This document shows, one piece after another, positions 11,774 through 42,377 of a DNA stretch of 64,000 nt. The notes under the pieces were generated by a model, which did no database searches, was not told the DNA's origin, and saw nothing but the letters and a program-made list of their open reading frames with translations. The stretch is from Anaerosomatales bacterium (GTDB taxonomy: Bacteria; Actinomycetota; Coriobacteriia; Anaerosomatales; SLCP01). Both the position numbers and the translations under genes were made by a program. Position 1 is the first letter of the stretch; each line of letters opens with the position of its first letter. The stretch spans positions 1,035-65,034 of the forward strand of contig JARGFT010000001.1 of NCBI GenBank assembly GCA_029210645.1. The letters are read 5' to 3'.

Positions 11774-11820
11774 CAGGTCCCGTGGAGCGCGGCCGGCCCG
11801 GTCGGCCCCGAGGAGGTAGC

Positions 11821-12402: not shown

Positions 12403-12610
12403 GGCCCGCACGCCGGGACGTGGGGCCGCGACGTAGCGAACGGCCGGGCGTTCCTGCACCGATGGAAGACCCTACGGGGCATCCGAGCAAACACACCGAT
12501 AGTGCGGCACGCCACTGAGCAGCGGCGTTACTGCGTATCGGGTGAGGGGGACACTCTTGATACGGGAGCGCCGAGATGCTCCGGACGCAAATGAGAAGGA
12601 GGCCTGACCC

Positions 12611-12880
12611 ATGACTGACGCAGCACGCGATGCCTACAAAGCCAAGGCTGAGGCCAAGCTTGACGAGTGGAGTGCCAGACTCAAGCAACTGGAGGCCAAA
12701 GCGCGCGCGTCCTCGGCTGACGCCGCTATCGAGTTCGACGAGGCAGCCGATGAGCTCCGTGCCCGGATCGACGAGCTGCGCGCCAAGGCGAGCGAAGAGA
12801 GAGACGATCTCGAAGAGGAGATCGAGCGACTGGGACGCTCCGCTGAAGGCGCGTGGGAAGCCATCAAGGACCGTCTGTGA
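12611..12880 (+). CDS. hypothetical 89-aa acidic coiled-coil protein
   Basis: ATG is preceded by GAAGGAGG. The sequence is heptad-like and rich in A/E/K/R/D, and I recognise no family. Confidence 0.45.
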   Translation: MTDAARDAYKAKAEAKLDEWSARLKQLEAKARASSADAAIEFDEAADELRARIDELRAKASEERDDLEEEIERLGRSAEGAWEAIKDRL

Positions 12881-12897
12881 GATGAAGGGCAGGCCGA

Positions 12898-17472: not shown

Positions 17473-18906
17473 ATGTCCGGACTCCTCGACACCATCTCCG
17501 CACACGACCCGGTTCTCGGGCGTCACCTTCTCAACGTCGCCCAGAACCTGCAGCTCGTCGCAGACCTCGGCTACGGTGACGTGGCGCTTGCGGTGCCGGG
17601 TGCCGACGGAGCACTCGCGGTCGCCGCCGATGCGCGTCCCGTGACGGCTGTCGCGGCGCTGGCCGGCTCGCGGGTGGGAGCGAACCTCTCGCCGGAGCGG
17701 GAGAGCGAGGCCTACGAGGCCGCCCGCCTCGGCCGTCTTGTCCAGGGCACCAGGCGCCGAATCACGCGCGGGATCTCCTACACCTCGGCTGCATATCCGG
17801 TCGGCCCCGCGGGTGATCCGGCTGCGGTGATCGTCCGCAACGTGGCGCTCCAGGTGCTCGATGCGCCCGGTGCGATGGAGACGCAGTTCATGCAGGCGGC
17901 CGAGGACCTGCTCAAGGTGTTGTGCGTCGCTCCGCTCACCACCGCCGGGGGAGACACCTTTTCCACCGTGCGCGTCGCCGGCGACGGCGTGCTGCGCCTC
18001 GACACCGATGGCCGGGTCGCATACGCGAGCCCCAACGCCGTCAATATCATGCGCCTGGCGGGTTTCGAGGGCGCAGTGCCCGGTACGGTCGGGACGCGTC
18101 TGCCCGGCGGCCCTGCCGCGCTCGCGCCCGTCATGCAGGGGCGCTCGGGTACTGCGGCGGGCACGGAAACCGAGGTCGGAGAGCGGGTGCTCGACTACCG
18201 TGCGATCCGTCTCGAGCACGGCGTGCTCGTCCTCGTCCAGGACCGCACCGAGGCGTACCGTCGCGAGCAGGAGATCAAGGTCAAGGAGGCGACGATCCGC
18301 GAGGTCCACCACCGGGTGAAGAACAACCTGCAGACCATCGCGAGCCTCCTGCGCATCCAAGCGCGTCGCGCCGAGACCGACGAGGCCAGGCGCGAGTTGG
18401 CAGAGGCCGTCGAGCGGGTCTCGTCGATGGCGGTGGTCCACGACATGCTGGCGTCTTCGACCGAGGAGCGCATCGACTTCACCGAGGCGGCGCGTACCGT
18501 CGTAGATCAGGTCCGGCGGGGGCTGGCCGGGGAGAGCAAAGCCGTCTCGGTGAGCGTCAACGGGTCGACGGGCCTGGTGCCCTCCTACGTCGCGACCTCG
18601 CTCGCGCTCATCGTCGCCGAACTCGTCCACAACGCCATCGAGCACGGATTCGCCGACCGTGACGGCGGGGAGGTGGAGGTAGCGATGCGGCGTCTCATCG
18701 GCGAGCTCGTGCTCACCGTGCGCGACGACGGTACCGGTCTTCCCCAAGGATTCGACCCGCACTCGGCCACCAACCTCGGCCTGGCGATCGTGCGTACGGT
18801 GGTCGAGGACAACCTTCACGGCACCATCGCGTTCAGCGGCGGACGCGGCACCACGGTCACTGTCCGGTTCCCGCTCGCAGACGATCCGACACCGGGGAAG
18901 GAGTGA
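17473..18906 (+). CDS. pdtaS: sensor histidine kinase, PdtaS-like (HisKA_2/HWE-type H-box)
   Basis: H-box HHRVKNNLQTIASLLRIQ with a C-terminal HATPase and N-terminal GAF/PAS-like region. It is paired with the ANTAR regulator downstream. Confidence 0.8.
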   Translation: MSGLLDTISAHDPVLGRHLLNVAQNLQLVADLGYGDVALAVPGADGALAVAADARPVTAVAALAGSRVGANLSPERESEAYEAARLGRLVQGTRRRITRGISYTSAAYPVGPAGDPAAVIVRNVALQVLDAPGAMETQFMQAAEDLLKVLCVAPLTTAGGDTFSTVRVAGDGVLRLDTDGRVAYASPNAVNIMRLAGFEGAVPGTVGTRLPGGPAALAPVMQGRSGTAAGTETEVGERVLDYRAIRLEHGVLVLVQDRTEAYRREQEIKVKEATIREVHHRVKNNLQTIASLLRIQARRAETDEARRELAEAVERVSSMAVVHDMLASSTEERIDFTEAARTVVDQVRRGLAGESKAVSVSVNGSTGLVPSYVATSLALIVAELVHNAIEHGFADRDGGEVEVAMRRLIGELVLTVRDDGTGLPQGFDPHSATNLGLAIVRTVVEDNLHGTIAFSGGRGTTVTVRFPLADDPTPGKE

Positions 18907-19484
18907 GGCCCGTGCGCGTGCTCATCGCCGAGGACGAGGCCCTCATCCGCATGGACCTTCGCGAGATGCTCGAGGAGGACGGCCACGAGGTCGTGGGAGA
19001 GGCGGGAGACGGCGAGTCCGCGGTCGAGATGGCCCGGGACCTCGCGCCCGACGTCGTGTTCATGGACATCGAGATGCCGGTGATGAACGGTCTGGATGCC
19101 GCGTGCATCCTCGGAGCCGAGCAGGTGGCTCCCGTGGTGATGGTCACCGCCTTTTCGCAGGCCAGCTACGTGGACCGGGCGTGCGACGCGGGGGCCATGG
19201 GCTACCTGGTCAAGCCGTTCTCGAAGGGCGATATCGTCCCCGCGATGCAGATCGCAACGTCGCGGTTCATCGAGTCCCGTCAGCTTGCCGAGGAGATCGA
19301 CGATCTCAAGGAGCGCCTCGCGACCCGCACGCTCGTCGACCGGGCCAAGGGCGCACTCATGGGGCGGGGCATGACCGAACCCGAGGCGTTCCGGCGTCTC
19401 CAGAAGATGGCGATGGACAAGCGGCTGACATTGAAGCAGGTCGCCGAGGCGGTTCTGCTCGCAGAGGAGGCCGCCGAGCGGTAA
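18903..19484 (+). CDS. pdtaR: response regulator with ANTAR RNA-binding output domain, PdtaR-like
   Basis: REC domain (VLIAEDE.., DVVFMDIEMP, GYLVKPF) plus ANTAR (LATRTLVDRAKGALM...EPEAFRRLQKMAMDKRLTLKQVAEAVL). GTGA overlap with the pdtaS stop. Confidence 0.85.
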   Translation: MRPVRVLIAEDEALIRMDLREMLEEDGHEVVGEAGDGESAVEMARDLAPDVVFMDIEMPVMNGLDAACILGAEQVAPVVMVTAFSQASYVDRACDAGAMGYLVKPFSKGDIVPAMQIATSRFIESRQLAEEIDDLKERLATRTLVDRAKGALMGRGMTEPEAFRRLQKMAMDKRLTLKQVAEAVLLAEEAAER

Positions 19485-25736: not shown

Positions 25737-25841
25737 GGCGCTCCTTCCGCCGGGGCCTCCTAGGGATAGATTCCCCCCGGCACGGCGGCGTCTCACGGGC
25801 GAGGCTCTCCCGGCGCGTGCCACGTGCTATACTCGCGTGAC

Positions 25842-25927
25842 ACGGCACAAAGACGTGCCGTCCATAGCGCAACGAGCAATGAAGCTCGCCTGGCCCATTC
25901 GGGGCCCCGGCGGGCTTTTTCGTTTTT
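25842..25927 (+). promoter_or_regulatory. candidate ANTAR-target leader: two hexaloop hairpins overlapping an intrinsic terminator
   Basis: P1 spans 25842-25861 (ACGGCAC-AAAGAC-GTGCCGT). P2 spans 25873-25888 (CGAGC-AATGAA-GCTCG). The terminator stem spans 25884-25915 and is followed by TTTTTCGTTTTT (25916-25927). Both loops have A at position 1 and G at position 4. An extended -10 TGCTATACT lies at 25825-25833. Confidence 0.5.
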
Positions 25928-25954
25928 CGGGCAGCGTGACAGGAGGATGGCGGC

Positions 25955-27292
25955 ATGAAAGAGTTCGCGGCGTTCTGGGGGTGCACGATCCCCGCACGCT
26001 TCCCGTTCATCGAGAAGGCGACGCGACTGGTGTGGGAAGACCTCGGTGCACGCGTGCACGAACTCGAGGGCCACACCTGCTGCCCCGAGGGCGTGCTCGT
26101 CAAAGCGAACGACGAGCAGGCGTTCTACACCGCCGCGGCGCGCAACCTCGCTCTCGTGGAGCGGGCCGAGCTCGACGTCGTCACCCCGTGCAACGGCTGC
26201 TACTCGACGTTCAAGGAGGCTCAGAGTCACCTGCGCACCAGGTGGCGTGAGCGCGACGCCGTCAACGAGCGGCTTGCGCGCGAAGACCTGCACTACTCCG
26301 GCTCGAACAAGGTCGTCCACTTCGCCGAGTGGCTCTCCGACGAGATGGGTGCCGGGCTCGTGGCCTCGCGGGCGGTCAGGCCGCTGTGGGGGATGCGTAT
26401 CGCGGTCCACTACGGGTGCCACCTCCTGCGCCCGCAGCCGGCGGTACGGTGGGACGACCCGTTGCACCCCAGTAAGGTAGAGGAGATCGTCACGGCTCTG
26501 GGCGCGCGGGTGGTCGACTACCCGACCAAGATGCAGTGTTGCGGTGGCGCCCTCGACCGGGTAGGGGAGCGTGAGTCCTCGCTCGCCTTCGCGCGGCGCA
26601 AGCTCGTCGACGTGCAGCGCGAAGAGGTCGACGCGCTCGTCGTGGTCTGCCCGAGCTGTTTCCAGCAGTTCGATCTGAACCAGGCGGCCCTGCAGCGTGC
26701 CACGGAGGACATCAACGTTCCGGTCTTCTACCTCGCAGAGCTCATCGCACTGACATACGGGCACGAGCCCGCCGAGATCGGCCTGGATATGCACCGCGTG
26801 TCTGTCCAGCCGTTCCTCGAGCGGTGGGGGTCTCGTACCGCCGACAAGGTGCGCCTGGCCTCGCACTTCGACGTGGCGATGCTCGGGAAGTGCTATTCGT
26901 GCCAGGCGTGCAAGGACGATTGTCCGGTGTGCAAGGTCGACCCGAGCTTCCAGCCGACCGAGATCATCGGCGATCTGGTGCGCGGCTACCTCGACGACGT
27001 AGTTGCCGACAGCCAGCTCTGGAAGTGCCTGGAGTGCTACACCTGCCAGGAGCTGTGCCACTCCGACATCGGCATGGCCGAGACGTTCAGGCAGCTCAAG
27101 GAGCTTGCGATGGCATCGGGCAGCGGGCCCGAGTCGGTCTCGGCCGCCTACCAGACCTTCCTGGAGACGGGAGTCCTCGGCAAACCGAGGGAGTCCGCGC
27201 GCAAGAAGCTCGGACTCTCACCCCTGCCTGCGACCGGTGGAGACGCCGTGTCCCACCTGATCGACTGCGCGACCGAGATCAAGGGAGAGTAG
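25955..27292 (+). CDS. heterodisulfide-reductase-like protein, HdrB (2x CCG domain) fused to an HdrC-like 2x[4Fe-4S] domain
   Basis: CCG-domain cysteines (GHTCCPEG, PCNGC, MQCCGGAL, VVCPSCF) are followed by CYSCQACKDDCPVCK and CLECYTCQELCHSD. SD AGGAGG at 25941-25946. Confidence 0.75.
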   Translation: MKEFAAFWGCTIPARFPFIEKATRLVWEDLGARVHELEGHTCCPEGVLVKANDEQAFYTAAARNLALVERAELDVVTPCNGCYSTFKEAQSHLRTRWRERDAVNERLAREDLHYSGSNKVVHFAEWLSDEMGAGLVASRAVRPLWGMRIAVHYGCHLLRPQPAVRWDDPLHPSKVEEIVTALGARVVDYPTKMQCCGGALDRVGERESSLAFARRKLVDVQREEVDALVVVCPSCFQQFDLNQAALQRATEDINVPVFYLAELIALTYGHEPAEIGLDMHRVSVQPFLERWGSRTADKVRLASHFDVAMLGKCYSCQACKDDCPVCKVDPSFQPTEIIGDLVRGYLDDVVADSQLWKCLECYTCQELCHSDIGMAETFRQLKELAMASGSGPESVSAAYQTFLETGVLGKPRESARKKLGLSPLPATGGDAVSHLIDCATEIKGE

Positions 27293-27294
27293 CG

Positions 27295-28569
27295 ATGCGA
27301 TACGAACCGCTTCTGGAGCGCATGCCAACCACGCGCATCCCGTCCTTCACCGATCGTGAGGGCGTATCTCGCGGGGAGCGCCCCCGCTACGCCGAGGAAG
27401 CCCCGTTCAAGATCCACGGCGGGTGCGGGCTGATGGGCATCTGTGACGAGTCCGGATCGCTCATGAGCGGGGAGGTGCCGATCCGCGCGATGGCGGTGCA
27501 ACGCGACCGTGGCAACGGTCTGGGCGGAGGCTTCGCCGGTTACGGCATCTACCCCGAGTTCCCGGACCATTTCTGCTTCCACATGATGTACCACGACCTG
27601 AGGGCCAAGGAGGACGCCGAGGCGCTCTTCGACCGGTACTTCCAGATCGATCTTGCCGAGCCCATGCCTACGAGGCCCGTTAAGGGCATCGGCGACGCTC
27701 CGCTGCTCTGGCGCTACTTCCTCAACCCCGATCCTCACAAGCTCGAGGCCGCCGAGATGACGCCCGAGGACTTCGTCGTGCATTCGGTCATGCTCATAAA
27801 CTCCACCGTCGACGGGGCGTTCGTCGCCTCGAGCGGCAAGAACATGGGCGCGTTCAAGGGCGTGGGCTTCCCCGAGGAGATCGGTCACTACTACCTGCTC
27901 GAAGAGTACGAGGGCCACACGTGGGTCGGACACAACCGTTTCCCGACCAATACGCCTGGCTGGTGGGGCGGCGCGCATCCGTTCACGCTGCTTGACTGGT
28001 CGATCGTGCACAACGGCGAGATCTCGAGCTACGGCATCAACAGTCGCTATCTCGAGCAGTTCGGCTACAAGTGCACGCTCGGCACCGACACGGAGGTTGC
28101 CGCCTACCTGTTCGACCTGATGTTGCGCCGTCACCAGCTGCCGATCGAACTCGCGTGCAAGGCGCTCGCAAGCCCGCTGTGGTCCGAGATCGACCGCATG
28201 CCCGCAGAGGAGCAGGCCGTCATGCGCTCGCTGCGCGCGGTCTACGGGCCGGGCATGCTCAACGGGCCGTTCGCCATCGTGCTCGGATTCAACGGCGGGA
28301 TGGTTGCGCTCAACGACCGCATCAAGCTGCGGCCGCTCGTCGCCGCCCGGCAGGGATCGATCGTCATGGTCGCATCCGAGGAGAGCGCGATCCGTGAGGT
28401 GCTCGATGCGCCCGACCGTGTGTGGGCGCCGAAGGCCGGCGAGCCTGTGATCGCCACTGTCTCGGGAAACGGATCGCCCGTCCACTCAGACCTGCATCTG
28501 TCCGCCGATGAAGTCTCGTGTGCCGTTACCGGCATGCTCGAGACCTGCGACGCCGTCGAGGTGAGCTAG
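27295..28569 (+). CDS. class II glutamine amidotransferase domain protein (glutamate synthase domain 1, archaeal-type split GltB)
   Basis: GGCGLMGI nucleophile context, QRDRGNGLGGG and HNRFPTN.. motifs. ATG 27295 is in frame in track ORF 26824..28569. Confidence 0.8.
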   Translation: MRYEPLLERMPTTRIPSFTDREGVSRGERPRYAEEAPFKIHGGCGLMGICDESGSLMSGEVPIRAMAVQRDRGNGLGGGFAGYGIYPEFPDHFCFHMMYHDLRAKEDAEALFDRYFQIDLAEPMPTRPVKGIGDAPLLWRYFLNPDPHKLEAAEMTPEDFVVHSVMLINSTVDGAFVASSGKNMGAFKGVGFPEEIGHYYLLEEYEGHTWVGHNRFPTNTPGWWGGAHPFTLLDWSIVHNGEISSYGINSRYLEQFGYKCTLGTDTEVAAYLFDLMLRRHQLPIELACKALASPLWSEIDRMPAEEQAVMRSLRAVYGPGMLNGPFAIVLGFNGGMVALNDRIKLRPLVAARQGSIVMVASEESAIREVLDAPDRVWAPKAGEPVIATVSGNGSPVHSDLHLSADEVSCAVTGMLETCDAVEVS

Positions 28570-28571
28570 AG

Positions 28572-30083
28572 ATGCCGATATCGCTCATACAGCCCGAGTT
28601 CAAGGTCCACATCGACTACGACAAGTGCCACAAGTGTGGCCGGTGCGTCCAGCAGTGCGGGTGGAGCGTGTACTCGTTCAACGAGCGGCCGATCCCGGAC
28701 GACTCCAAGTGCCGCGCGTGCCACCGCTGCGTGACGTACTGTCCCGCCCACTGCATCACCATCAGGAAGAACGATCTCGCGCTGCGGGACAACGCCAACT
28801 GGTCCCCTGCGCTTCGCCAGGGCGTGTGGCGCCAGGCCGAGACCGGCGGCGTCATGCTGACCGGCATGGGCAACGACAAGCCGTACCTGTCGATCTTCGA
28901 TCACCTGCTGCTCGACGCGTGCCAGGTCACCAACCCGTCCATCGACCCGCTGCGCGAGCCTATGGAGCTGCGGACCTACCTCGGCCGCAAGCCCTCGGCT
29001 GTCGAGGTGACCTCCGACGGCAACGGCGGCTTTCGGCTTGCCGAGGGCGCGGGAGTGCAGAAGAACATCAAGCTGGACGTCCCCATCATCTTCTCGCCGA
29101 TGAGTTACGGCTCGGTCTCGCTGCCCGTCCACCGCTCGCTCGCGATGGCGGCCGAGCGGCTGGGCATCCTTATGAACACCGGAGAGGGCGGTCTGCATGC
29201 CGACCTCTATCCGTACGCCGATAACGTCATCGTTCAGGTCGCCTCGGGCCGTTTCGGTGTCGACCCCGAGTACCTCAACCGGGGTGCGGCCGTAGAGATC
29301 AAGGTCGGGCAGGGCGCCAAGCCGGGTATCGGCGGACACCTGCCGGGGGAGAAGATCAACCGCGAGGTCTCCGAGACGCGCATGATCCCGCAGGGTTCGG
29401 ACGCGATCAGCCCCGCGCCGCACCACGACATCTACTCGATCGAGGACCTGCGACAGCTGATCTACTCGATCAAGGAGGCGACCGACTACAAGCCGGTGGG
29501 CGTGAAGATCGCGGCGGTCCACAACGTGGCCGCCATCGCGAGCGGCATCGTTCGCGCCGGGGCCGACTACGTCCACCTCGACGGCTTCCGAGGGGGCACC
29601 GGAGCGGCGCCGCAGATCATCCGCGACCACATCGGCATACCCATCGAGCTGGCGATCGCAGCGGTCGACCAGCGCCTGCGCGACGAGGGTATCCGCAACC
29701 AGGCGTCGATCATCGCAGCCGGCTCGATCCGCTCCTCGGCCGATCTCGCCAAGGCGATCGCTCTCGGGGCCGACGTGGTGGCCATCGGCTCGGCTGCGCT
29801 CATGGCGCTCGGTTGCCACATGTGCCAGGGCTGCCACACCGGATCGTGCTCGTGGGGGCTTACGACGCAGAAGCCCGAACTCACGCGGCGCGTCGATCCC
29901 GAGTGGGGCGCGGAGCGGCTGACGAACCTGGTCAGCGCGTGGAGCCACGAGCTGCAGGAGATCCTCGGAGCGCTCGGGGTGAATGCGGTCGAGTCACTGC
30001 GTGGCAGCCGGGAGCGGTTGCGTTCGATCGGCCTGGACGAGCAGACCGGCAGAATCCTGGGCGTCAAGCCCGCGGGAGTATAG
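28572..30083 (+). CDS. glutamate synthase FMN/Fe-S domain protein with N-terminal 2x[4Fe-4S] ferredoxin domain (GltB domain 2)
   Basis: CHKCGRCVQQC and CRACHRCVTYCP clusters, then SPMSYGSVS, KVGQGAKPGIGGHLPG, DGFRGGTGAAP and the C-terminal Cys cluster CHMCQGCHTGSC. Confidence 0.85.
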   Translation: MPISLIQPEFKVHIDYDKCHKCGRCVQQCGWSVYSFNERPIPDDSKCRACHRCVTYCPAHCITIRKNDLALRDNANWSPALRQGVWRQAETGGVMLTGMGNDKPYLSIFDHLLLDACQVTNPSIDPLREPMELRTYLGRKPSAVEVTSDGNGGFRLAEGAGVQKNIKLDVPIIFSPMSYGSVSLPVHRSLAMAAERLGILMNTGEGGLHADLYPYADNVIVQVASGRFGVDPEYLNRGAAVEIKVGQGAKPGIGGHLPGEKINREVSETRMIPQGSDAISPAPHHDIYSIEDLRQLIYSIKEATDYKPVGVKIAAVHNVAAIASGIVRAGADYVHLDGFRGGTGAAPQIIRDHIGIPIELAIAAVDQRLRDEGIRNQASIIAAGSIRSSADLAKAIALGADVVAIGSAALMALGCHMCQGCHTGSCSWGLTTQKPELTRRVDPEWGAERLTNLVSAWSHELQEILGALGVNAVESLRGSRERLRSIGLDEQTGRILGVKPAGV

Positions 30084-30094
30084 GGAGGCATCGC

Positions 30095-30940
30095 ATGACA
30101 CCGGTGACAGAGCTGACCAAGCCGGCTGCGGCCGAGGTCGCAAAGCCGATAGAGGGTTACCTCCAGGCTGTGCCCGAGGCGAGGGTCGACGGAGGTGTTG
30201 CGACGATCGATGCCCGCGGCATCTACTACAAGCACCTCAACGAGGTCGTTCGGAGATGTCTCGCCGACGGTGCGAAGAAGGTCGTGCTTGAGAGCGTCAA
30301 CGGCCAGCGCTACATCGGCACGGGACTCAAGGGCGCGGGTACGCGGATCGAGGTCCACGGAACTGCCGGTCAGGACATGGCGATGTTCATGGACGGTCCG
30401 ACGGTCGAGGTGTTCGGTAGCGCCCAGGACGGTGTAGGCAACACGATGAACGCCGGTCGCGTGATCGTGCATGGGGACGCGGGTGACGTACTCGGATACG
30501 GCATGCGCGGAGGCCAGGTCTTCATCAAGGGCGACGTCGGCTACCGGGTCGGGATCCACATGAAGGCGTACGAGACCCGTCATCCCGTCATGGTATGCGG
30601 CGGCAAAGCGAGAGACTTCTTCGGCGAGTACATGGCCGGGGGAGTGCTCGTGCTGCTCGGGATGGACAGCCGGATCGGGGGCCCGCTCGTCGGCGGATAC
30701 ATCGGCACCGGCATGCACGGAGGGGTCATCTACCTGCGGGGCGAGGTCGAGTCCTGGCAGTGCGGCAAGGAGGTCGGGACGTTTCCTGCGGATGAGAAGG
30801 ACCTTGCGACCCTGCGTCCGGTGCTCGAGGAGTACTGCGAGGCGTTCGGGATAGATGTCGACGAGGTGCTCTCGATGCCCTTCACCAAGCTCGTGCCGAT
30901 CAGTCACCGGCCCTACGGGAAGTTGTACACGTACGTATAG
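30095..30940 (+). CDS. GXGXG-motif domain protein (glutamate synthase domain 3 / FwdC-like beta-helix)
   Basis: Repeated G-x-G turns (HGTAGQDMAMFMDG..VFGSAQDGVGNTMNAGRVIVHGDAGDVLGYGMRGGQVFIKGDVGYRVG). Confidence 0.8.
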   Translation: MTPVTELTKPAAAEVAKPIEGYLQAVPEARVDGGVATIDARGIYYKHLNEVVRRCLADGAKKVVLESVNGQRYIGTGLKGAGTRIEVHGTAGQDMAMFMDGPTVEVFGSAQDGVGNTMNAGRVIVHGDAGDVLGYGMRGGQVFIKGDVGYRVGIHMKAYETRHPVMVCGGKARDFFGEYMAGGVLVLLGMDSRIGGPLVGGYIGTGMHGGVIYLRGEVESWQCGKEVGTFPADEKDLATLRPVLEEYCEAFGIDVDEVLSMPFTKLVPISHRPYGKLYTYV

Positions 30941-31098
30941 CGCAGGGCCTCGCACATGGCTGAGCGCGTCGCCGGAACGTCGGCGGAACAGCCCCGTTCG
31001 CGGGCATGCGGTACGCTTGTGCGGACTGGATATCGTGCGTGTAGGGGATTATCCAGACTGCAGAAGATGGGTTAGGTGGGACGACAGGGGGGATCGGG

Positions 31099-31362
31099 AT
31101 GGCGGTGCTCGGGCTTCCGGGCGGGATGGAATGGCTGATCATCGCATGTATGTGTCTGCCGTTCCTTGTGCTCGCGGTTGTGGCCGTCGTGCTCGTTCAG
31201 CAACGGGGTGCCGGGGCTGCCGGACAGGCTCCCACGCCGCCGGTCCCGCCAGCAGGCTGGTTTGCGGACCCGACTGGACGACACGAGCTCAGGTACTGGA
31301 ACGGTCTTTCTTGGACGGCGTCAGTCAGCGATGCCGGCACACAGTCCGACGACCCAATGTAG
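31099..31362 (+). CDS. DUF2510-domain membrane protein
   Basis: One TM span (WLIIACMCLPFLVLAVVAVVLV), a Pro-rich linker and the GWFADPTGRHELRYWNGLSWT motif. The start is ATG 31099 or 31129. Confidence 0.6.
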   Translation: MAVLGLPGGMEWLIIACMCLPFLVLAVVAVVLVQQRGAGAAGQAPTPPVPPAGWFADPTGRHELRYWNGLSWTASVSDAGTQSDDPM

Positions 31363-31521
31363 GCGAGGTCGGTCGCCCACCTAACAAGCGCATCGTTAGC
31401 AGCAGGCGCGCAGAAGGTAGACTGGACCTGCAAGCAGGCGGCGCGCAGCTCATGCGCAACACGTTAGCCACAGCAAGAATCCGGTTTGGCTCTGTTTGGA
31501 CGAGGGGCGTATCATCGGGGC

Positions 31522-31737
31522 ATGAGCACACCGGCCATCGACATCGACAATCTCGCACCGGAGGAGCGCCTCAAGCTCATCGGCGACCTGTGGGAGAGTC
31601 TGCGCGCCGAACCCGAGGCGGTGCGGCTCACCCCTTCCCAGAGAGCTGAGCTCGACCGTCGCCTTGATGCCCTGGATCGCGGGACCGCCGACATCATGAC
31701 TTGGGACGAGGCCAAGCGCCGGCTGCGCGGCTGGTAG
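31522..31737 (+). CDS. putative addiction-module antitoxin (TIGR02574-like)
   Basis: LAPEERLKLIGDLWESL....LTPSQRAELDRRL motif, 71 aa, directly upstream of a ParE/RelE-like gene. Confidence 0.65.
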   Translation: MSTPAIDIDNLAPEERLKLIGDLWESLRAEPEAVRLTPSQRAELDRRLDALDRGTADIMTWDEAKRRLRGW

Positions 31738-31739
31738 CT

Positions 31740-32042
31740 GTGTCTGGACAGCTGTGGGTCCTCGCAGACGCCGTGGCTGAGAGCGAAGCCGCTCGCGCGT
31801 GGTACGAGGTCCAGCGCCCCGGGCTTGGTGGCGAGCTCCTCGATGCGATTGACAGTGCTGTCGAATCGCTACTCGCAGTCCCCGAAGTCTGTCCCGTGGA
31901 CTATCGTGACGCGCGACGTTACCTTCTCGAGCGCTTCCCCTACTGTCTGTACTATCGTGTCGAGTCTGACGGCGTGGTCGTCGTCGCACTTCTTCATGCT
32001 GCTCGTGATCCAGCTCATAAGCGCCGTCGGCTGCATTCCTGA
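31740..32042 (+). CDS. type II toxin, RelE/ParE family
   Basis: A..E...A..WYE....GLG..L, RRYLLERFPYCLYYRV and VVVVALLHAARDP motifs. GTG 31740 lies 2 nt after the antitoxin stop. Confidence 0.7.
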   Translation: MSGQLWVLADAVAESEAARAWYEVQRPGLGGELLDAIDSAVESLLAVPEVCPVDYRDARRYLLERFPYCLYYRVESDGVVVVALLHAARDPAHKRRRLHS

Positions 32043-32085
32043 GTTCAAGTTTGAATCGCAACACACGGCCCTTCTGAGCGACTTC

Positions 32086-32211
32086 CTACGATCTTGCATA
32101 GCACTCCTCCGGTGTTCGGAACCCCAGCCGCTTCCTGGTCCGGGTGTTCAGCTTGTGCGCGATGGCGTCCAGGTCCGCCTGTGTGACGTGCGCCATGCTC
32201 GTGCGCTTCGG
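32086..32211 (-). mobile_element. IS30-family transposase C-terminal remnant (last ~40 codons only)
   Basis: ..PKRTSMAHVTQADLDAIAHKLNTRTRKRLGFRTPEECYARS* matches the conserved IS30 tail (YFPKxT...TQxELDxVAxxLNxRPRKxLGFxTPxE). No DDE core is present upstream. Confidence 0.6.
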
Positions 32212-32476
32212 CATCGCCCGGGATGAACTGATCGTCCGCTTCGGGATCGTCCGGCTGCGCATCCCGCTGGACACGATTCAGGAGGTGGTGCTTACCCACA
32301 ACCCGCTGTCCGCTCCAGCGCTGTCGCTAGACCGGCTCGCAGTCCGCACCGGCATGAGCCCGCTTTCAGAAACGATGATCTCCCCGGCTGATCGGGAGGC
32401 CTTCCTCTCCACCCTGGCGATGCACTCGAGGTTGCGACGGGATGGCGATCGGTTGGTGCGTTTCGGGCGGCCTTGA
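32195..32476 (+). CDS. bacterial PH-domain-like protein, probably N-terminally truncated at the IS30 scar
   Basis: ..DELIVRFGIVRLRIPLDTIQEV....SLDRLAVRTG....ISPADREAFLSTL pattern. Its first codons are antisense to the transposase remnant. Confidence 0.4.
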   Translation: MLVRFGIARDELIVRFGIVRLRIPLDTIQEVVLTHNPLSAPALSLDRLAVRTGMSPLSETMISPADREAFLSTLAMHSRLRRDGDRLVRFGRP

Positions 32477-32520
32477 GCGCACGCCCATGAGTATCCGACT
32501 GACGACCGTGATGCGGGAAC

Positions 32521-32967
32521 TCAGTCGTCGATGACCGCAAGACCCTGACGTTCCAGCTCGGCCAGGTGGTCCCGCATCGACTGGAGCACATCCGGGGGAT
32601 GGCCCTCCCATTCCCTGACCTCGCCGGTTACTCGCAGCGGGTCCCGGGTCCTGTAGGACCTGGTGGGGTTGCCGGGGAAGCGCTTGTTGGTCAGGTTGAG
32701 GTCGTCTTCAAAGGGACCGGTGGGTTCGACGATGTAGATCCGTCCCGCTCCCTCGCCCCGGGCCAGCTCTGCTCCCCAGACAGCCGCATCCAGGGTGCCC
32801 GTGAAGTAGATGTTGTTCGATGCCCGACCTTCCTCGAAGTTCGAGCCGTAGCCGGGAATCAGCAGTTCCCCCGGTGTGACGCTGGCCTTGGTCCCGTGGT
32901 AGAAGGGGCCCTTGATGTGGTCGTGGTGCTCGAACGTCACGGGGATATGGGCGCTGTCGTCGTCCAC
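32521..32967 (-). CDS. arr: NAD+--rifampin ADP-ribosyltransferase
   Basis: 148 aa, collinear with Arr as I recall it: GPFYHGTKA.., NIYFTGTLDAAVWGAELA, IYIVEPTGPFEDDLNLTNKRFPGNPTRSYRTRDPLRV, EWEGHP. Confidence 0.9.
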   Translation of the reverse strand: MDDDSAHIPVTFEHHDHIKGPFYHGTKASVTPGELLIPGYGSNFEEGRASNNIYFTGTLDAAVWGAELARGEGAGRIYIVEPTGPFEDDLNLTNKRFPGNPTRSYRTRDPLRVTGEVREWEGHPPDVLQSMRDHLAELERQGLAVIDD

Positions 32968-33011
32968 GACCGGTCTCCTTGCTCGTTCCCAACGGAGGTT
33001 CTGGCGTACAG

Positions 33012-33073
33012 GTAGATACCCCCTACCGCCTCTAGCCGCACGGGCTCTTTCGACCGCGCGACGGGGTATCTAC
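33012..33073. repeat. 11-bp inverted repeat pair upstream of arr
   Basis: GTAGATACCCC (33012-33022) and GGGGTATCTAC (33063-33073) are perfect complements 40 nt apart, 45-106 nt upstream of the arr ATG. Confidence 0.7.
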
Positions 33074-33115
33074 GTTGGTGACGCACCCCGAATCGCAGGC
33101 AGAGGAGCACTACTG

Positions 33116-33498
33116 ATGATGTACGTAGCGCTGCTGCCCGGCATGGACGAGGGGAGGACCTACATCAACTCCGGCCACGTGATCTTTCGCAGCGATTCGG
33201 CGGATGCCGTGAAAGCTGTGCTGAACGAGCTGCCGGACACCTGGGTAAACGACGACTCCGCGAAGTGCGACGTGATACTCCTGGGGGAGGACGTGGACGC
33301 TCCGGAGGTCCTCGAGCAGCTTGTGATCAAGCCGGACATCGATGACGTCAGAGATATGTTCCGGGAGCCGTTCTCTGGCGCGTGGAGCGTTCGGTCACCA
33401 GGAGCGGCTTGATGAAGCTGGTCGGCGCCGAACTCTACGCGCAGACGACGGTTCGCAACTGCAATACACCGCGCAAGCTTGCCGGGATGATGCAGTAA
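33116..33498 (+). pseudogene. decayed DUF1697-family gene (internal deletion plus frameshift)
   Basis: The N-terminus MMYVALLPGM-DEGRTYINSGHVIFRSD lacks the segment normally found between YVALLRGINVGG and VRTYIQSGNV. The family's C-terminal ..TTVRNCNTPRKLAGMMQ* is in another frame (stop 33496-33498). Confidence 0.5.
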
Positions 33499-33562
33499 GC
33501 TGGTGCGGTTTGTCGTACTCTGTAGGACCTCGTACGCGGCCAAGAGGACATGTGAGGTAGCG

Positions 33563-34603
33563 ATGAAGATCGGACTCGTCGGCTTTGCCGGCTCGGGCAA
33601 GACCACCGTGTTCAACACCATGACCGGTTTAGACGTGCCCGTCGGCTACGGCGGCGAGGTGCGGCTCGGGACGGTGCGCGTGCCCGACGAGCGCATCGAC
33701 CGGCTCTCGGCGATGTTCACTCCGAAGAAGACCACCTACGCCGAGATGACCTTCTGCGACGTGCCCGGCGAGCACGGAGCCGAGCGCAAGGGCCTCTCGT
33801 CGCGGGCGCTTTCGACCATCCGCGAACAGGAAGCGCTCGCGCTCGTGCTCCGCGACTTCGGCAATCCGGCGATCGAGGGCGATGCCGACCCGCTGCGGGA
33901 CCTGAGCGCGTTCACTGACGAATGCATCCTCGCCGACCTCGGAATCGTCGAGGGGCTCCTGGCCCGCGCGCGCAAGGAGAACCTGCCGGCCGCCGACCGC
34001 GAGCGGCTCGAGCGGATGCAAGCCGTCCTCGAAGAGGGGAGGCCGCTGCGCACCCTCTCGGCCACTGAGCTGGACCGCGCCTCGCTCAAGGGCTACCAGC
34101 TGCTGACCGACCGCCCTCTGCTGGTGGTCGTGAACCGTGAGGAGGCCGGGGCCGCCGAGCCATTGCCTGAAGATCTCGCGGCGCGAGTCTCAGAGCTGGG
34201 AGCCGGTGGTCTCGCGCTTTCGGCGAGCGTCGAGGCGGAGATCGCCACACTCGACGCGGAGGACCAGGCGGCCTTCCTTCAGGACCTCGGGCTTGCCGAG
34301 TCCGCCCTCGCGCGCTTCATCCGGACCGCATACGGCCTTCTCGACCTCATCAGCTTCTTCACGGTGGGCGAGGACGAGGTGCGCGCGTGGACCATCACGC
34401 GCGGGATGAACGCCCGGACGGCCGCCGGCAAGATCCACTCCGACCTGGAGCGCGGGTTCATCCGGGCCGAGGTGATGGGCTACGACGTCTTCATCGAGCA
34501 CGGCAGCGAGCACGCCGTGAAGGAGGCGGGCCTGTTCCGCGTCGAAGGCAAAGACTACGTGGTTGCGGACGGCGACATCATGAACATCCGCTTCAACGTG
34601 TAG
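33563..34603 (+). CDS. ychF: redox-regulated ATPase YchF (Obg-like GTPase family)
   Basis: MKIGLVGFAGSGKTTVFN P-loop and a C-terminal TGS-like domain (AWTI..G..A..AAGKIHSDLERGFIRAEV). Confidence 0.9.
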   Translation: MKIGLVGFAGSGKTTVFNTMTGLDVPVGYGGEVRLGTVRVPDERIDRLSAMFTPKKTTYAEMTFCDVPGEHGAERKGLSSRALSTIREQEALALVLRDFGNPAIEGDADPLRDLSAFTDECILADLGIVEGLLARARKENLPAADRERLERMQAVLEEGRPLRTLSATELDRASLKGYQLLTDRPLLVVVNREEAGAAEPLPEDLAARVSELGAGGLALSASVEAEIATLDAEDQAAFLQDLGLAESALARFIRTAYGLLDLISFFTVGEDEVRAWTITRGMNARTAAGKIHSDLERGFIRAEVMGYDVFIEHGSEHAVKEAGLFRVEGKDYVVADGDIMNIRFNV

Positions 34604-34611
34604 AGGCGCTC

Positions 34612-35828
34612 TCAGGCGACGCGCCGAGGTGTCTCGGCGTCCTGTCCGATCTCGGCCGTGAACGGCCGCCCCAGCTTCTTGCAGAGCCGCTGGATCGTGT
34701 CCTTGCCGGTGATCAGCGCGATCGGCAGTCCGCCCGGGGGCTGTAGCCACTGGCCGGAGAGCACGAAGTCCTCCAACCCCTTGATGCGGCCGGTGTGCGC
34801 CATCATCTTGCTGCTCCGGGTAGGGAAGAACGCCATGAATGCTCCCCGGTGCGCGTTACAGTAGCGGTCGTAGGTCGTCGGCGTGGCCACGTCGAGGACC
34901 GTGAGCTTGCCGGCCATCTGCGGAAGCTGCTTCTCGATGGCCGCACGTACCGCCTCGCCCACACGCTCCTTCTCGCGCCGGTATGCGGTGCGGTCCTGTG
35001 CGAGCGCGAACCAGCGATCGACCTCCTCGCCGAAGTGGTTGAGCGCGACGGTGAGCGCGGTGCACCCCGCCGGCGCGAAGCCGGGCTCGTAGCCGTAGTG
35101 GTTGAGCGTGATCTGTGTGACGGTGCTGCCGGCGACCTCGATCGGCTCGCAGTCGAACCGCACCGTTCGCGGCACGTCGCCGACCTCCCCCTCGCAGCCG
35201 GTTTCGACCCGGCCGCCGAGGGTGCGGTACCGCCCGGCCATGCGGTCGGCGAGCGCCTTCGAGCCGCCCACGGGAATCGAGGACTGTCCCTTCGCAAAGG
35301 TCGCGAGCCCGAAGAAGAGGAAGGCGGACGAGTAGTCGCCCGGAGCGAACGTGGCGAACATCTCACGGATGGCAGGATGGGTGAAGCGCTGCGAGTATTC
35401 CTCGAGGCCGACCTTACCGTAGCGCTTCATCACCGCGCCGGCGTCCTTCATCGAGGCGAAGTAGCGCACCTTCTCGATGAGCGACATCATGTCGACGGGC
35501 TTGTCGAGCTGATCGTCGAAACTGCCGAGTTGCCTGATGGTCGCGATGAACTCCTCGATGGCGTCGGCGTCGGCGGGGGAGAGCTCGAGCCAGCTTGCGC
35601 GCAACCGCTCGAGGTCCCGGTAGATCGGCACCGTGCCGCTCTCGTGCTCGTACGTGAGGAACGTCTCGGGGTGGTAGATCTCGACGCCATCGAGCGCGCC
35701 GACGCTCCTCCAGAGATCGTTCATCGGCGTGCCCTCTTTCGTGCCGAGAGCCCGGCGATCCCGCCGCCGATGATGACGATGCTCGGTGCGTCGCCGTTCC
35801 TGGTCGTGCGTGCTGCTGTCGTGCTCAC
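34612..35828 (-). pseudogene. FAD-dependent oxidoreductase (phytoene-desaturase-like, COG1233 type) disrupted by an out-of-frame internal deletion
   Basis: GTG 35828 (GTGA overlap with the TetR stop) opens VSTTAARTTRNGDAPSIVIIGGGIAGLSARKRARR*, which stops at 35723-35721. The remaining 370 codons (MNDLWRSVGAL.. from ATG 35724) are in a different frame. Confidence 0.65.
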
Positions 35829-36418
35829 TGCTGCTCATCCTTTGCCGTGACGTGCTTCCTGGTTGCCTGCATCCCGGCCGCGATCTCCTCGCCCGTTTCG
35901 AGCAGGAGCTCCTCGGCCGCTTTCTCGTCCATCCACGACGGGAGGTGATCGTTTGCCACCATCGCCGAGAGTCCCAACTGGAAGACGCGCATCTTGAGGA
36001 AGAGGCGCCTGCGCGCGCCATCGGTCCATCCGGCAAGCTCAGGATGTGCAGCCATAAGGGGGGCCATCGCGTCCTCGATCTGCTCGTGCGGGGTCATGAA
36101 GTCGTTGGGCTCGAGGGCCATCTCGCGGAAGAGGGCGGGGTAGTCGCGTGCGAACGCGAGCGACGCCTTGCCCATGTTCTCGAAGGGGTTGGGGCCGGTC
36201 TGCGCGGCGAGGAGCTCGCCCGACATGGCCGAGACCCGCTCGACCACGGCCGCGCTCAGCTCGTCGACGGTCGCGAAGTTCTGGTAGATCGGAGCGACCG
36301 AACAGCCCAGGCGCCTGGCGACGGCCCGCGTGGAGATCGCTGAGAACCCGCCCTCCTTGGCGATCTCGAACGCGGCCTCGACGATCGTGTCACGGTCGTA
36401 CTTGGTGGTCGGCGGCAT
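35825..36418 (-). CDS. TetR/AcrR family transcriptional regulator
   Basis: N-terminal HTH (AFEIAKEGGFSAISTRAVARRLGCSVAPIYQNF) and an SD GGAGGT upstream of the ATG. Confidence 0.85.
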   Translation of the reverse strand: MPPTTKYDRDTIVEAAFEIAKEGGFSAISTRAVARRLGCSVAPIYQNFATVDELSAAVVERVSAMSGELLAAQTGPNPFENMGKASLAFARDYPALFREMALEPNDFMTPHEQIEDAMAPLMAAHPELAGWTDGARRRLFLKMRVFQLGLSAMVANDHLPSWMDEKAAEELLLETGEEIAAGMQATRKHVTAKDEQQ

Positions 36419-36440
36419 GTGACCTCCTGCAATAGCACCC

Positions 36441-36462
36441 GTTAGATAACGTCAGTTAGATA
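36441..36462. promoter_or_regulatory. direct repeat GTTAGATA-N6-GTTAGATA upstream of the TetR gene (candidate operator)
   Basis: Copies at 36441-36448 and 36455-36462, 23-44 nt upstream of the TetR ATG (36418). Confidence 0.3.
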
Positions 36463-36511
36463 TCATAGGTGCCGGCGCAGACGGTGTCAAGCGGTTGCCC
36501 GAAGTAAGGTG

Positions 36512-36547
36512 CCGGAAACGCAAAGGGCCGCCCTCCGGGCGGCCCTT
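36512..36547 (-). terminator. rho-independent terminator of gdhA
   Basis: The stem AAGGGCCGCCC / GGGCGGCCCTT (11 bp, 3-nt loop) is followed on the minus strand by TTTGCGTTTCC, 31 nt after the gdhA stop. Confidence 0.75.
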
Positions 36548-36577
36548 CTACGCGTCACGTGCTGAAACAGCGGGCGT

Positions 36578-38005
<1,428 letters not shown>

Positions 38006-38013
38006 CTAGTGAA

Positions 38014-40650: not shown

Positions 40651-40809
40651 CGACGCTCCCGGTGTCGTCAGCAGTTCGCCGCACGTGCGGGCCGGGCCCG
40701 CCGGTGGCACCCGTGCGCGGTTGCTGCGGGCATGAACCTAGGATACACGCGCCCTGGGTGCCCCGGATGTCGGAGCGCGCTGCGACCCCTCGGAAGATAT
40801 CTCGCAGCC

Positions 40810-40825
40810 GAAACACTCACGAAAC
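40810..40825. promoter_or_regulatory. candidate GlnR box (GAAAC-N6-GAAAC) upstream of glnA
   Basis: GAAACACTCACGAAAC lies about 100 nt upstream of the glnA ATG and about 20 nt upstream of a possible -10 (TACAAC). Confidence 0.3.
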
Positions 40826-40921
40826 ATTGTGCCCGTAGTCTACCTACAACCAGTGGTCGCACACCGCCGGGGACAGTCACGGACTGAGTGGGCTTATCAC
40901 TCAATCGAGGAGGTAGAAGGT

Positions 40922-42259
40922 ATGGCACCCACGTTCGACAAAGACTACGTGCTCACGACGCTCGAAGAGCGCGGCATCCGCTTCGTGAGATTCTGGTTCA
41001 CCGACGTACTCGGATTCCTCAAGAGCTTCGCCGTCACCGACACCGAGGTGGAGACCGCGTTCGAAGAGGGGATGGGCTTCGATGGCTCCTCCATCGACGG
41101 TTTCGCACGCATCCAGGAGTCGGACATGGTCGCGTTCCCGGACGCATCCACCTTCCAGCTGCTGCCCTGGCGCCCCGAGGAGGGCGGCGTGGCCCGCATG
41201 TTCTGTGACATCACCACCCCCGACGGCAGCCCCTTCAATGGTGATCCGCGCTACATCCTCAAGCGCACTCTCAAGAAGGCGGCCGACATGGGCTACACCA
41301 TGTACGTCGGTCCCGAACTCGAGTTCTTCTACTTCGCCGACTCCGAGAGCACCCAGGTGCTCGACAAGGGCGGTTACTTCGACCTGACTCCGCTCGACGT
41401 CGCTTCGGAGCTGCGCCGCGACACCGTCCTGGCTCTCGAGAAGCTCGGGATCCCTGTCGAGTACTCGCATCACGAAGTCGCACCGTCGCAGCACGAGATC
41501 GACCTGCGCTACACTGATGCGCTCTCCATGGCCGACAACGTCATGACGTACCGCCTCACCGTCAAGGAGATCGCGTATGCCAACGGCGTCTACGCGACCT
41601 TCATGCCCAAGCCGATCCAGGGTGAGAACGGCTCCGGGATGCACGTACACCAGAGCCTCTTCGACAAGGACGGCAACGCGTTCTTCGACGCGGACGATCC
41701 GCAGGGCTACAACCTGAGCACCGTGGGCAAGCAGTACATCGCCGGCCTGCTCAAGTATGCGCCGGAGTTCTGCGCCTTGACCAACCAGTTCGTCAACTCC
41801 TACAAGCGTCTCGTGCCCGGTTACGAGGCCCCGGTCTACATCACCTGGGCACGCCGTAACCGCTCGGCCATGGTCCGCGTGCCGATGTACAAGCCCGGCA
41901 AGGAGAACGCAACCCGCGTCGAGCTCCGTTCGCCGGATCCCTCTGCCAACCCGTACCTCGCCTTCGCCGTGATGCTCGGCGCCGGCCTGAAGGGCATCGA
42001 GGAAGGGCTCGAGCTTCCGGCCGAGGCCACGAACAACATCTTCCACATGACGGAGGAGGAGCTTGCGAGTGCAGGCATAGGTATGCTGCCCGAGAACCTC
42101 GGCGAGGCGATCAAGCTCTTCGAGGAGTCAGAGGCGATGCGGGACATCCTCGGCGATCACGTTCACCGCTTCTTCGTCGAGAACAAGAAGGCCGAGTGGA
42201 ACGAGTACAAGGCCTACGTGACCCAGTGGGAGCAGGACAAGTACCTCTCGATACTCTAG
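40922..42259 (+). CDS. glnA: glutamine synthetase type I
   Basis: FTDVLGFLKSF, the MPKPIQGENGSGMHVHQSLF region and NSYKRLVPGYEAP. SD GAGGAGG upstream of ATG 40922. Confidence 0.95.
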   Translation: MAPTFDKDYVLTTLEERGIRFVRFWFTDVLGFLKSFAVTDTEVETAFEEGMGFDGSSIDGFARIQESDMVAFPDASTFQLLPWRPEEGGVARMFCDITTPDGSPFNGDPRYILKRTLKKAADMGYTMYVGPELEFFYFADSESTQVLDKGGYFDLTPLDVASELRRDTVLALEKLGIPVEYSHHEVAPSQHEIDLRYTDALSMADNVMTYRLTVKEIAYANGVYATFMPKPIQGENGSGMHVHQSLFDKDGNAFFDADDPQGYNLSTVGKQYIAGLLKYAPEFCALTNQFVNSYKRLVPGYEAPVYITWARRNRSAMVRVPMYKPGKENATRVELRSPDPSANPYLAFAVMLGAGLKGIEEGLELPAEATNNIFHMTEEELASAGIGMLPENLGEAIKLFEESEAMRDILGDHVHRFFVENKKAEWNEYKAYVTQWEQDKYLSIL

Positions 42260-42304
42260 GGTCCCCCTGACCGGACGGGTCGGGTCCTTACTGCACGACT
42301 TGGC

Positions 42305-42339
42305 AACGGCGCCGGGCGGTCGATCCGCCCGGCGCCGTT
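42305..42339 (+). terminator. 15-bp perfect hairpin after glnA
   Basis: AACGGCGCCGGGCGG / loop TCGAT / CCGCCCGGCGCCGTT, followed by CTCGTT (weak U-tract). Confidence 0.7.
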
Positions 42340-42377
42340 CTCGTTGGCTACCACGCTGGAGCGCTACAATCATGCAC

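Follow-up and report, generated by a model that had tools for sequence, protein, structure and literature searches.

What supplies the electrons to a glutamate synthase (GOGAT) that has no GltD subunit? The question is raised by four packed genes in a 64-kb stretch of DNA from an Anaerosomatales bacterium of the class Coriobacteriia (contig JARGFT010000001.1; this whole stretch is called the window below), which has a G+C content of ~67% and uncultured Coriobacteriia metagenome-assembled genomes (MAGs) as its nearest relatives. The donor of such GltD-less, archaeal-type GOGATs has been in question for decades, and the sole proposal, an F420-linked subunit, is unproven (PMC3087415, PMC3448663). 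At the present locus, the domains of the GOGAT large subunit, GltB, are encoded by three separate genes preceded by a gene for a protein that resembles subunits B and C of heterodisulfide reductase (Hdr) fused into one chain (HdrBC). Taken as a whole, the data are best explained by a split GOGAT in which HdrBC takes the place of GltD and oxidises a dithiol, a reading that we consider probable; complex formation, the direction of electron flow and the identity of the donor are the parts of it that we infer.

A fused hdrBC gene beside split gltB genes

The four genes lie on the + strand at 25955-30940 and are separated by gaps of 2, 2 and 11 nt, exactly as an earlier note, made from the sequence alone, had placed them. 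The hdrBC-like gene (25955-27292; 445 aa), with AGGAGG ahead of its ATG, is followed by gltB1-like (27295-28569; 424 aa), encoding a class II, N-terminal nucleophile (Ntn) glutamine amidotransferase subunit with Cys44 as candidate nucleophile, by gltB2-like (28572-30083; 503 aa), encoding an N-terminal 2x[4Fe-4S] ferredoxin domain and a flavin mononucleotide (FMN)/2-oxoglutarate synthase domain, and by gltB3-like (30095-30940; 281 aa), encoding a GXGXG beta-helix subunit. The genes of the window were called by codon-position G+C and then scanned with Pfam; no GltD-like or Pyr_redox protein was present among them, in agreement with what the note had said of GltD, and GltD was likewise absent from the operon of every related locus.

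To assess how constant this arrangement is, we used two collections. Scanning one genome per species with a profile from a 10-sequence alignment gave 80 Actinomycetota loci (from Coriobacteriia and Thermoleophilia, at 52-97% identity), and an exhaustive HMMER search gave ~26 clusters of full-length fused HdrBC at 30-56% identity, whose contexts were checked individually. The order hdrBC-gltB1-gltB2-gltB3 is kept in all 76 informative Actinomycetota loci, i.e. those with downstream DNA. Over all 100 fused-HdrBC loci fetched, gltB genes are present in 95, the contigs of the other five ending on the side where such genes would lie, and no counter-example, a fused HdrBC without gltB beside it, was found among the 100. 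The association extends to at least six phyla and to both prokaryotic domains. Four-gene modules were found in Acidulodesulfobacterium, in Ca. Methanoperedens, in an archaeon (neighbours Cdc6, prefoldin and Pcc1), in Nitrospirota, with amtB/P-II close by, and on one unassigned contig and one unassigned metagenome scaffold; a further metagenome contig carries the module with amtB and P-II upstream and glnA directly downstream, Planctomycetota have hdrBC-gltB1-gltB2-HEAT-gltB3, and other metagenome loci show alternative gene orders. The neighbourhood on which the earlier note had staked its reading is thus kept in the relatives. Since 95 of 100 loci show the co-occurrence and none contradicts it, fused HdrBC proteins seem to form a family devoted to partnering the split GOGAT, and HdrBC is very likely a dedicated subunit of the enzyme. 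The note's central proposal, that HdrBC is the electron-input module of this GOGAT, is supported by this universal co-occurrence together with the absence of GltD from the window.

Is the trio itself a glutamate synthase? Pfam confirms that the GltB domains sit on three genes: GATase_2/6 in GltB1, with a weak GATase_2 score of 31 bits; Glu_synthase (PF01645, 450.8 bits) with an N-terminal Fer4 pair in GltB2; and GXGXG (PF01493, 112.5 bits) in GltB3, which finds its counterpart in the C-terminal domains of solved GltS. Nine distant orthologues of GltB1 all retain Cys44 and the motifs RFPTNTPGWWGGAHPF and HNGEI. GltB2 scores 272 bits against the NCBIfam glutamate synthase large-subunit model and aligns over ~310 residues with the solved large subunits of B. 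subtilis, Synechocystis and Azospirillum, the alignment taking in all three flavin-proximal cluster cysteines (7mfm_G; classical spacing C-x5-C-x4-C). The glutaminase, the FMN/2-oxoglutarate domain with its Fe-S cysteines and the GXGXG domain that together make up a split GltB are thereby all recognisable in sequence, and the best reading of these domains and motifs, together with the nitrogen-gene context, is that the trio is a real glutamate synthase.

Two features distinguish the trio in detail. The cluster motif of GltB2, CHMCQGCHTGSC (29870-29905, residues ~434-445), has the spacing C-x2-C-x2-C-x4-C, and its four cysteines are present in 74 of 74 orthologues, whereas solved GltB has three; the cluster of the split type may thus be [4Fe-4S] instead of [3Fe-4S]. 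In GltB1, a 43-aa N-terminal peptide precedes the catalytic Cys44 (27295-27426 encodes residues 1-44), against a range of 6 to 55 residues among orthologues, which implies either propeptide processing or a lineage-specific insertion as judged from the alignment. For Cys44 to be exposed, the peptide would have to be taken off. E. coli GltB and B. subtilis PurF have propeptides, which the GltB1 peptide resembles. A short RIPS motif within the peptide is shared with the Clostridia protein. Elsewhere, a Clostridia MAG (locus L107, 2276-3853) also codes for a separate 525-aa Glu_synthase-domain protein adjoining glnA and an ANTAR regulator, and a similar protein of ~530 aa occurs in six Coriobacteriia loci (e.g. 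L022, 2770-4362); by its domain content it may be a second GltB2-like enzyme.

GltB1/2/3-like trios also occur as N-methylglutamate synthase (MgsABC), an alternative that the earlier note had raised. In such a case, the trio would be that enzyme or another GltB-like amidotransferase system and HdrBC would serve an unrelated redox task. The weak GATase_2 score of GltB1 could be taken in its favour. N-methylglutamate synthesis is, however, non-redox, so that the chain of ~seven Fe-S clusters encoded here would be pointless; no methylamine-pathway genes (gmaS, mgd) were found among the called genes of the window, and the neighbours, across the loci and in the window, are instead glnA, amtB, P-II, glutamate dehydrogenase and an ANTAR leader (see below). 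GltB2 moreover scores at 272 bits to the large-subunit model with its cluster cysteines conserved. Because the reaction is non-redox, the methylamine genes are absent and the context is one of nitrogen assimilation, we regard this alternative as most improbable and retain the assignment as glutamate synthase.

The HdrBC protein has two CCG domains (Pfam; E 3.6e-31) followed by Fer4_8, residues 1-290 being HdrB-like and residues 305-430 HdrC-like. The note had described two CCG domains followed by an HdrC-like diferredoxin domain, which Pfam and NCBIfam both recover; the second ferredoxin motif, which it had read as ending in C-P, in fact ends in C-H (CLECYTCQELCH). Against NCBIfam, residues 3-290 align end to end with HdrB (TIGR03288) at 255 bits, for an equivalog cut-off of 345, and residues 312-428 align with HdrC (TIGR03290) at 60.5 bits, for a cut-off of 160; lesser matches are SdhE, the anchor of methylmenaquinol:fumarate reductase (143 bits), GlpC and TfrB (NF004898). 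The two CCG motifs comprise ten cysteines, C10, C42, C43, C79, C82, C155, C195, C196, C232 and C235, all invariant in 26 family members. Equally invariant in these 26 sequences are the two CxxCxxCxxxC motifs of the HdrC half (C313/316/319/323 and C358/361/364/368) and an RKKLGLP-like motif of the C-terminal tail, including R416 and L421. In the PDB, the HdrB half is matched over its full length by 9sfi_C (E 2e-60) and 5odc_B (E 8.4e-60), and the HdrC half by 5odc_C (E 1e-12).

The AlphaFold2 model of HdrBC (predicted local distance difference test, pLDDT, 92.3; predicted template-modelling score, pTM, 0.84) is compact and globular, with no long hydrophobic segment. Foldseek aligns it with solved HdrB across ~290 residues at 35-37% identity, with a target-normalised TM-score of 0.93 and a root-mean-square deviation of 1.7 A, and with HdrC at a target-normalised TM-score of ~0.6; LutA and a CCG protein are weaker fold matches. 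On the strength of the invariant cysteines, the PDB matches and the superposition of the model, HdrBC is predicted to unite a genuine HdrB with a genuine HdrC in one chain, B first, and not to be a protein of the SdhE/GlpC type. Its first half has the fold and the ten cysteines of HdrB; what it lacks are an equivalog-level score and, as partners in an organism using coenzymes M and B (CoM/CoB), HdrA and a free-standing HdrC. Its second half has both CxxCxxCxxxC motifs and the C-terminal extension of HdrC. HdrA was found neither in the window nor in the operons of related loci.

The same comparison bears on a quinol-dependent GOGAT, in which HdrBC would be SdhE/GlpC-like and draw on menaquinol at the membrane; quinone was on the earlier note's list of donors, and SdhE and GlpC are indeed among the secondary NCBIfam matches. 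But the top match, HdrB at 255 bits over the full length, is far above SdhE, the model is globular and without a long hydrophobic segment, menaquinol at ~-74 mV would leave almost no driving force, and the E3/lipoyl context described below indicates a soluble dithiol. A quinone-linked SdhE/GlpC type was hence rejected for HdrBC on its higher HdrB score and on the model, and a quinol-driven enzyme appears highly unlikely.

Proposed electron path and donor

Within Hdr, HdrB is connected to the remainder of the complex by HdrC. At this locus, the only partner available to the HdrC half is the ferredoxin domain of GltB2. We propose that the four gene products form one enzyme in which HdrBC would replace GltD as the electron-entry subunit. 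In the HdrB-like half, a pair of noncubane [4Fe-4S] clusters would oxidise a dithiol to the disulfide, i.e. the Hdr reaction reversed; single electrons would leave by way of the HdrC-like half, with its two [4Fe-4S] clusters, and pass through the N-terminal two-cluster ferredoxin domain of GltB2 and the flavin-side cluster to FMN. There, they would reduce 2-iminoglutarate made from 2-oxoglutarate and the ammonia that GltB1 frees from glutamine, GltB3 being presumably a structural beta-helix. Note that the direction follows from the product: because glutamate synthesis needs electrons to flow from the HdrB site to FMN, HdrB would here have to oxidise a dithiol. Dithiol donors are thermodynamically feasible, with lipoamide at ~-290 mV and CoM-S-S-CoB at ~-140 mV, the GOGAT half-reaction lying at roughly -70 to -140 mV.

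The opposite direction can also be envisaged. The system would then be a catabolic oxidoreductase that oxidises glutamate, with HdrBC reducing a disulfide and electrons leaving from a lipoyl protein through dihydrolipoyl dehydrogenase (E3) to NADH. Hdr normally does reduce disulfides, E3 normally oxidises dihydrolipoyl groups to yield NADH, and Clostridia, in which the E3 genes described below occur, ferment amino acids. The conserved GltB1 glutaminase, with its motifs intact, would nevertheless be purposeless in glutamate oxidation, the linkage to glnA, amtB and P-II and the nitrogen-type ANTAR leaders suit assimilation, and a separate glutamate dehydrogenase is present in the window. We thus give glutamate oxidation very little credence and keep to the synthetic direction, from dithiol to FMN.

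The most specific indication of the donor comes from three Clostridia arrangements, gltB1-gltB2-gltB3-lpd-lipB-lipA-(77-aa lipoyl domain)-hdrBC, gltB3-lpd-(85-aa lipoyl domain)-hdrBC-gltB1-gltB2, which adjoins glnA and two ANTAR regulators, and gltB3-lpd-hdrBC. The Clostridia HdrBC proteins are 45-60% identical among themselves and ~46% identical to the protein of the window. The lpd products score 569 and 573 bits, above the dihydrolipoyl dehydrogenase equivalog cut-off of 409, LipB and LipA of the Clostridia cluster clear their cut-offs, and the small carrier is an E2-type lipoyl domain. This set of lpd, lipoyl-domain, LipB and LipA genes therefore suggests a chain from NAD(P)H through E3 and lipoyl carrier as a functional replacement of GltD, in which electrons would run from NAD(P)H to E3, to the lipoyl carrier, and on through HdrB, HdrC and the GltB2 ferredoxin domain to FMN. 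The most likely dithiol in Clostridia is the small lipoylated carrier, which a dihydrolipoyl dehydrogenase would keep reduced at the expense of NAD(P)H; CoM-SH together with CoB-SH could fill this role in Ca. Methanoperedens. A thiol/disulfide couple had been one of the donors listed in the earlier note, and it gains specific support from the ten invariant cysteines and these Clostridia lpd/lipoyl genes.

Several observations weigh against a dithiol-driven enzyme at this locus. The HdrB and HdrC scores both fall under their NCBIfam equivalog cut-offs. SdhE, GlpC and LutA are CCG-domain proteins with quinone-linked or plain electron-transfer roles, and because CCG proteins do such work as well, conserved cysteines fall short of proving thiol chemistry. 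By tblastn, neither the 64-kb window nor the DNA up to 8 kb from the operon in the 80 Actinomycetota loci yielded a homologue of E3, lipoyl carrier, LipA or LipB, so the lipoyl hypothesis is not directly transferable to this genome. In a neighbour-joining tree, the lipoyl-linked operons are confined to a Clostridia/Methanoperedens clade apart from the Actinomycetota clade, and since the two clades are separate, the inference of the donor reaches this genome via 46% identity only. Finally, a Nitrospirota MAG (locus L091) encodes a 220-aa polyferredoxin (AF_0155-like; 1829-2491) directly upstream of hdrBC, which from its position hints at an alternative or additional, ferredoxin-type electron input in Nitrospirota.

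Several of these observations suit the main rival explanation, a ferredoxin-dependent GOGAT in which HdrBC would be a mere Fe-S relay or docking subunit with no thiol/disulfide chemistry. GltB2 already bears a 2x[4Fe-4S] ferredoxin-like domain, the Nitrospirota locus has its polyferredoxin gene next to hdrBC, most lineages, this one included, have no thiol-carrier gene in the operon, and LutA and SdhE function without disulfide substrates. A relay, on the other hand, would leave unexplained the invariant ten-cysteine catalytic architecture of HdrB as well as the recurrence of E3 within the operon in three Clostridia arrangements that are independent of one another, two of which add a lipoyl carrier and one lipoylation enzymes, and it would add four extra clusters to a system that already holds a ferredoxin domain. 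We consider it unlikely, if still the foremost of the competing explanations. Between the possible donors, we lean by a small margin towards a dithiol. In this Coriobacteriia genome, the electrons could come from a lipoyl protein encoded elsewhere, from another dithiol, or from reduced ferredoxin with HdrBC as relay; that a lipoyl protein is the donor in this organism seems doubtful. More generally, we tentatively suggest, at somewhat less than even confidence, a class of glutamate synthases driven by a dithiol and not by NAD(P)H, ferredoxin or F420, with lineage-specific dithiols.

Leader RNA and nitrogen-assimilation context

Upstream of hdrBC lies a 130-nt leader (25825-25954). Rfam gave no match at this leader, which was hence characterised de novo from an alignment of 33 relatives. 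At its 5' end, a conserved element, TGCTATACT (25825-25833, + strand), resembles an extended -10 sequence and is a putative promoter element. It is followed on the same strand by two hairpins, P1 (ACGGCAC-AAAGAC-GUGCCGU; 25842-25861) and P2 (CGAGC-AAUGAA-GCUCG; 25873-25888), both closed by hexaloops with A1 and G4, and by an intrinsic terminator (GCUCGCC...GGCGGGC and a U-run; 25884-25927). The 3' arm of P2, the antiterminator arm, is common to the terminator, which makes the two structures mutually exclusive. Over the 33 sequences, P1 is 100% paired, with five of six pairs covarying, P2 is 96% paired, and pairing in the base helix of the terminator reaches 95%, 11 of the 33 having exchanged GC for AU; slid controls gave 21-50% pairing.

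A covariance model built on this element (R1) scores 56.4 bits at the P2 region, its sole strong match in the window, and matches upstream of hdrBC in 63 loci, the same design occurring in ~60 Coriobacteriia loci. The architecture of two A1/G4 hexaloop hairpins is that defined for ANTAR targets by Ramesh et al. (PMC3369931), and ANTAR leaders have been linked to nitrogen genes, glutamate synthase genes included (PMC3369931). With both hairpins and the overlapping terminator in place, the leader is a predicted ANTAR-type antiterminator, which would gate expression of the operon in a manner typical of nitrogen-assimilation genes. No further R1 copy was found in the window, and in the loci only tandem second copies were seen, so that no regulon could be defined. 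Two Thermoleophilia-labelled loci, L066 (7550-7605 and 7875-7927) and L068 (7538-7594 and 7872-7922), carry two tandem dual-hairpin motifs upstream of hdrBC; the motif is missing from most of the other loci of Thermoleophilia type (L069-L080). Over seven loci outside Actinomycetota (Clostridia, Methanoperedens, metagenome), R1 gave one weak match of 14 bits, in L081.

A candidate regulator of this leader is encoded 6.5 kb upstream of the operon on the + strand, as a PdtaS-like histidine kinase (17473-18906) and a receiver-ANTAR response regulator (18903-19484). Of the 80 Actinomycetota loci, 47 have the regulator no more than 8 kb from the operon, and 40 have the kinase at such a distance.

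Nitrogen genes surround the operon as well. The window encodes a glutamate dehydrogenase (36578-37939, - strand), a glutamine synthetase (glnA; 40829-42259, + strand) and an OmpR-type regulator, maybe GlnR-like (42300-43043, + strand), all identified by the Pfam scan and all within 12 kb of the operon. A family that looks glutamine synthetase-like from its sequence lies near the operon in 33 of the 80 relatives, and in one inspected locus its gene starts ~1 kb 3' of gltB3; in other phyla, glnA, amtB, P-II or sigma-54/ANTAR regulators adjoin the module. When the neighbours in the 80 loci were clustered, the only recurrent families were the ANTAR two-component pair, the glnA-looking family and a 212-aa family without identification; no candidate donor (thioredoxin, ferredoxin or DsrC-like) recurred among them.

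Relation to known systems, and other genes of the window

We found no description of an HdrBC-linked glutamate synthase in the full-text literature outside subscription journals. The idea of a lineage-specific fourth subunit for split GOGATs already exists for F420. For FGltS, the methanogens' presumed F420-dependent glutamate synthase, an FrhB-like 'subunit 4' has been proposed (PMC3087415, PMC3448663). FGltS likewise has its GltB domains on three genes, no GltD and a dedicated extra operon subunit proposed for electron delivery, but this subunit is an FrhB homologue using F420H2, whereas here it is a fused HdrB-HdrC with an implied dithiol, and mostly bacterial. On the present reading, HdrBC is a second, far more widespread fourth subunit, with an electron path that can be tested and for which Clostridia supply the gene set of the entire chain, E3, lipoyl carrier, LipB and LipA. 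The chemistry of bacterial NADPH-GOGAT (GltBD) and ferredoxin-GOGAT, in which glutamine, 2-oxoglutarate and two electrons yield two glutamate, is expected of the split enzyme too. Compared to these, the glutaminase, the FMN/2-oxoglutarate site, the cluster cysteines and the GXGXG domain align with the solved large subunits; the differences are the split into three genes, the fourth cluster cysteine, the ferredoxin domain of GltB2 and HdrBC in place of GltD.

With the HdrABC of methanogens (PDB 5ODC, 7BKB, 8RVY), HdrBC shares the HdrB fold, the ten noncubane cysteines and both [4Fe-4S] motifs of HdrC, but B and C are fused, there is neither HdrA nor a bifurcating flavin, the partner is a GOGAT, and the host is a bacterium whose window is without methanogenesis genes. 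TfrAB of Methanothermobacter is a thiol:fumarate reductase that runs an HdrB-like CCG module in reverse, from thiols through Fe-S clusters to flavin. It resembles the enzyme proposed here in that thiol oxidation feeds a flavin site acting on an anabolic substrate; it differs in its acceptor, fumarate reductase there and GOGAT here, in its domain order and in its thiols, the bacterial thiol being probably not CoM/CoB.

Hdr-like proteins are known to be genetically coupled to a dedicated lipoyl protein in just one other system, sHdr-LbpA (PMC6067878), which oxidises sulfur and comprises an hdrC1B1A-hyp-hdrC2B2 set, the GcvH-like LbpA, LplA-type ligases and sulfur-transferase genes. The likeness, Hdr-like CCG proteins coupled to a lipoyl carrier with its own lipoylation enzymes, holds for the Clostridia relatives only, and even there the modules differ from sHdr-LbpA by an E2-type lipoyl domain, LipB/LipA, E3 and a GOGAT partner; the window and the Actinomycetota loci contain neither HdrA nor LbpA.

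If the proposal is correct, it would add a new reductant class for a central nitrogen-assimilation enzyme, extend Hdr-type noncubane cluster chemistry beyond methanogenesis and sulfur metabolism, give lipoate a role as redox shuttle in nitrogen assimilation and provide, after thiol:fumarate reductase, a second anabolic 'reverse Hdr' enzyme, in bacteria and archaea. It would also correct annotation: HdrBC is publicly annotated as 'CoB-CoM heterodisulfide reductase subunit B' or 'heterodisulfide reductase-related', and the former label in non-methanogens can mislead metabolic reconstructions from MAGs.

Of the other genes, those in the ~10 kb between the operon and glnA (30941-40828) encode a DUF2510 protein, an antitoxin-like protein, a bacterial PH-domain protein, YchF, an Arr rifampin ADP-ribosyltransferase (32521-32967, - strand), a TetR regulator, the glutamate dehydrogenase and a PPDK_N-domain protein; this segment may be a local insertion or rearrangement. 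A 1.1-kb segment at 11774-12897 contains no open reading frame with coding-type codon bias and gives no Rfam or tRNA match, the single Rfam match over the whole window being one tRNA-Leu. At the start of the window, the trp operon carries two PALP-type (TrpB-like) genes, at 966-2312 and 2979-4217, around trpF.

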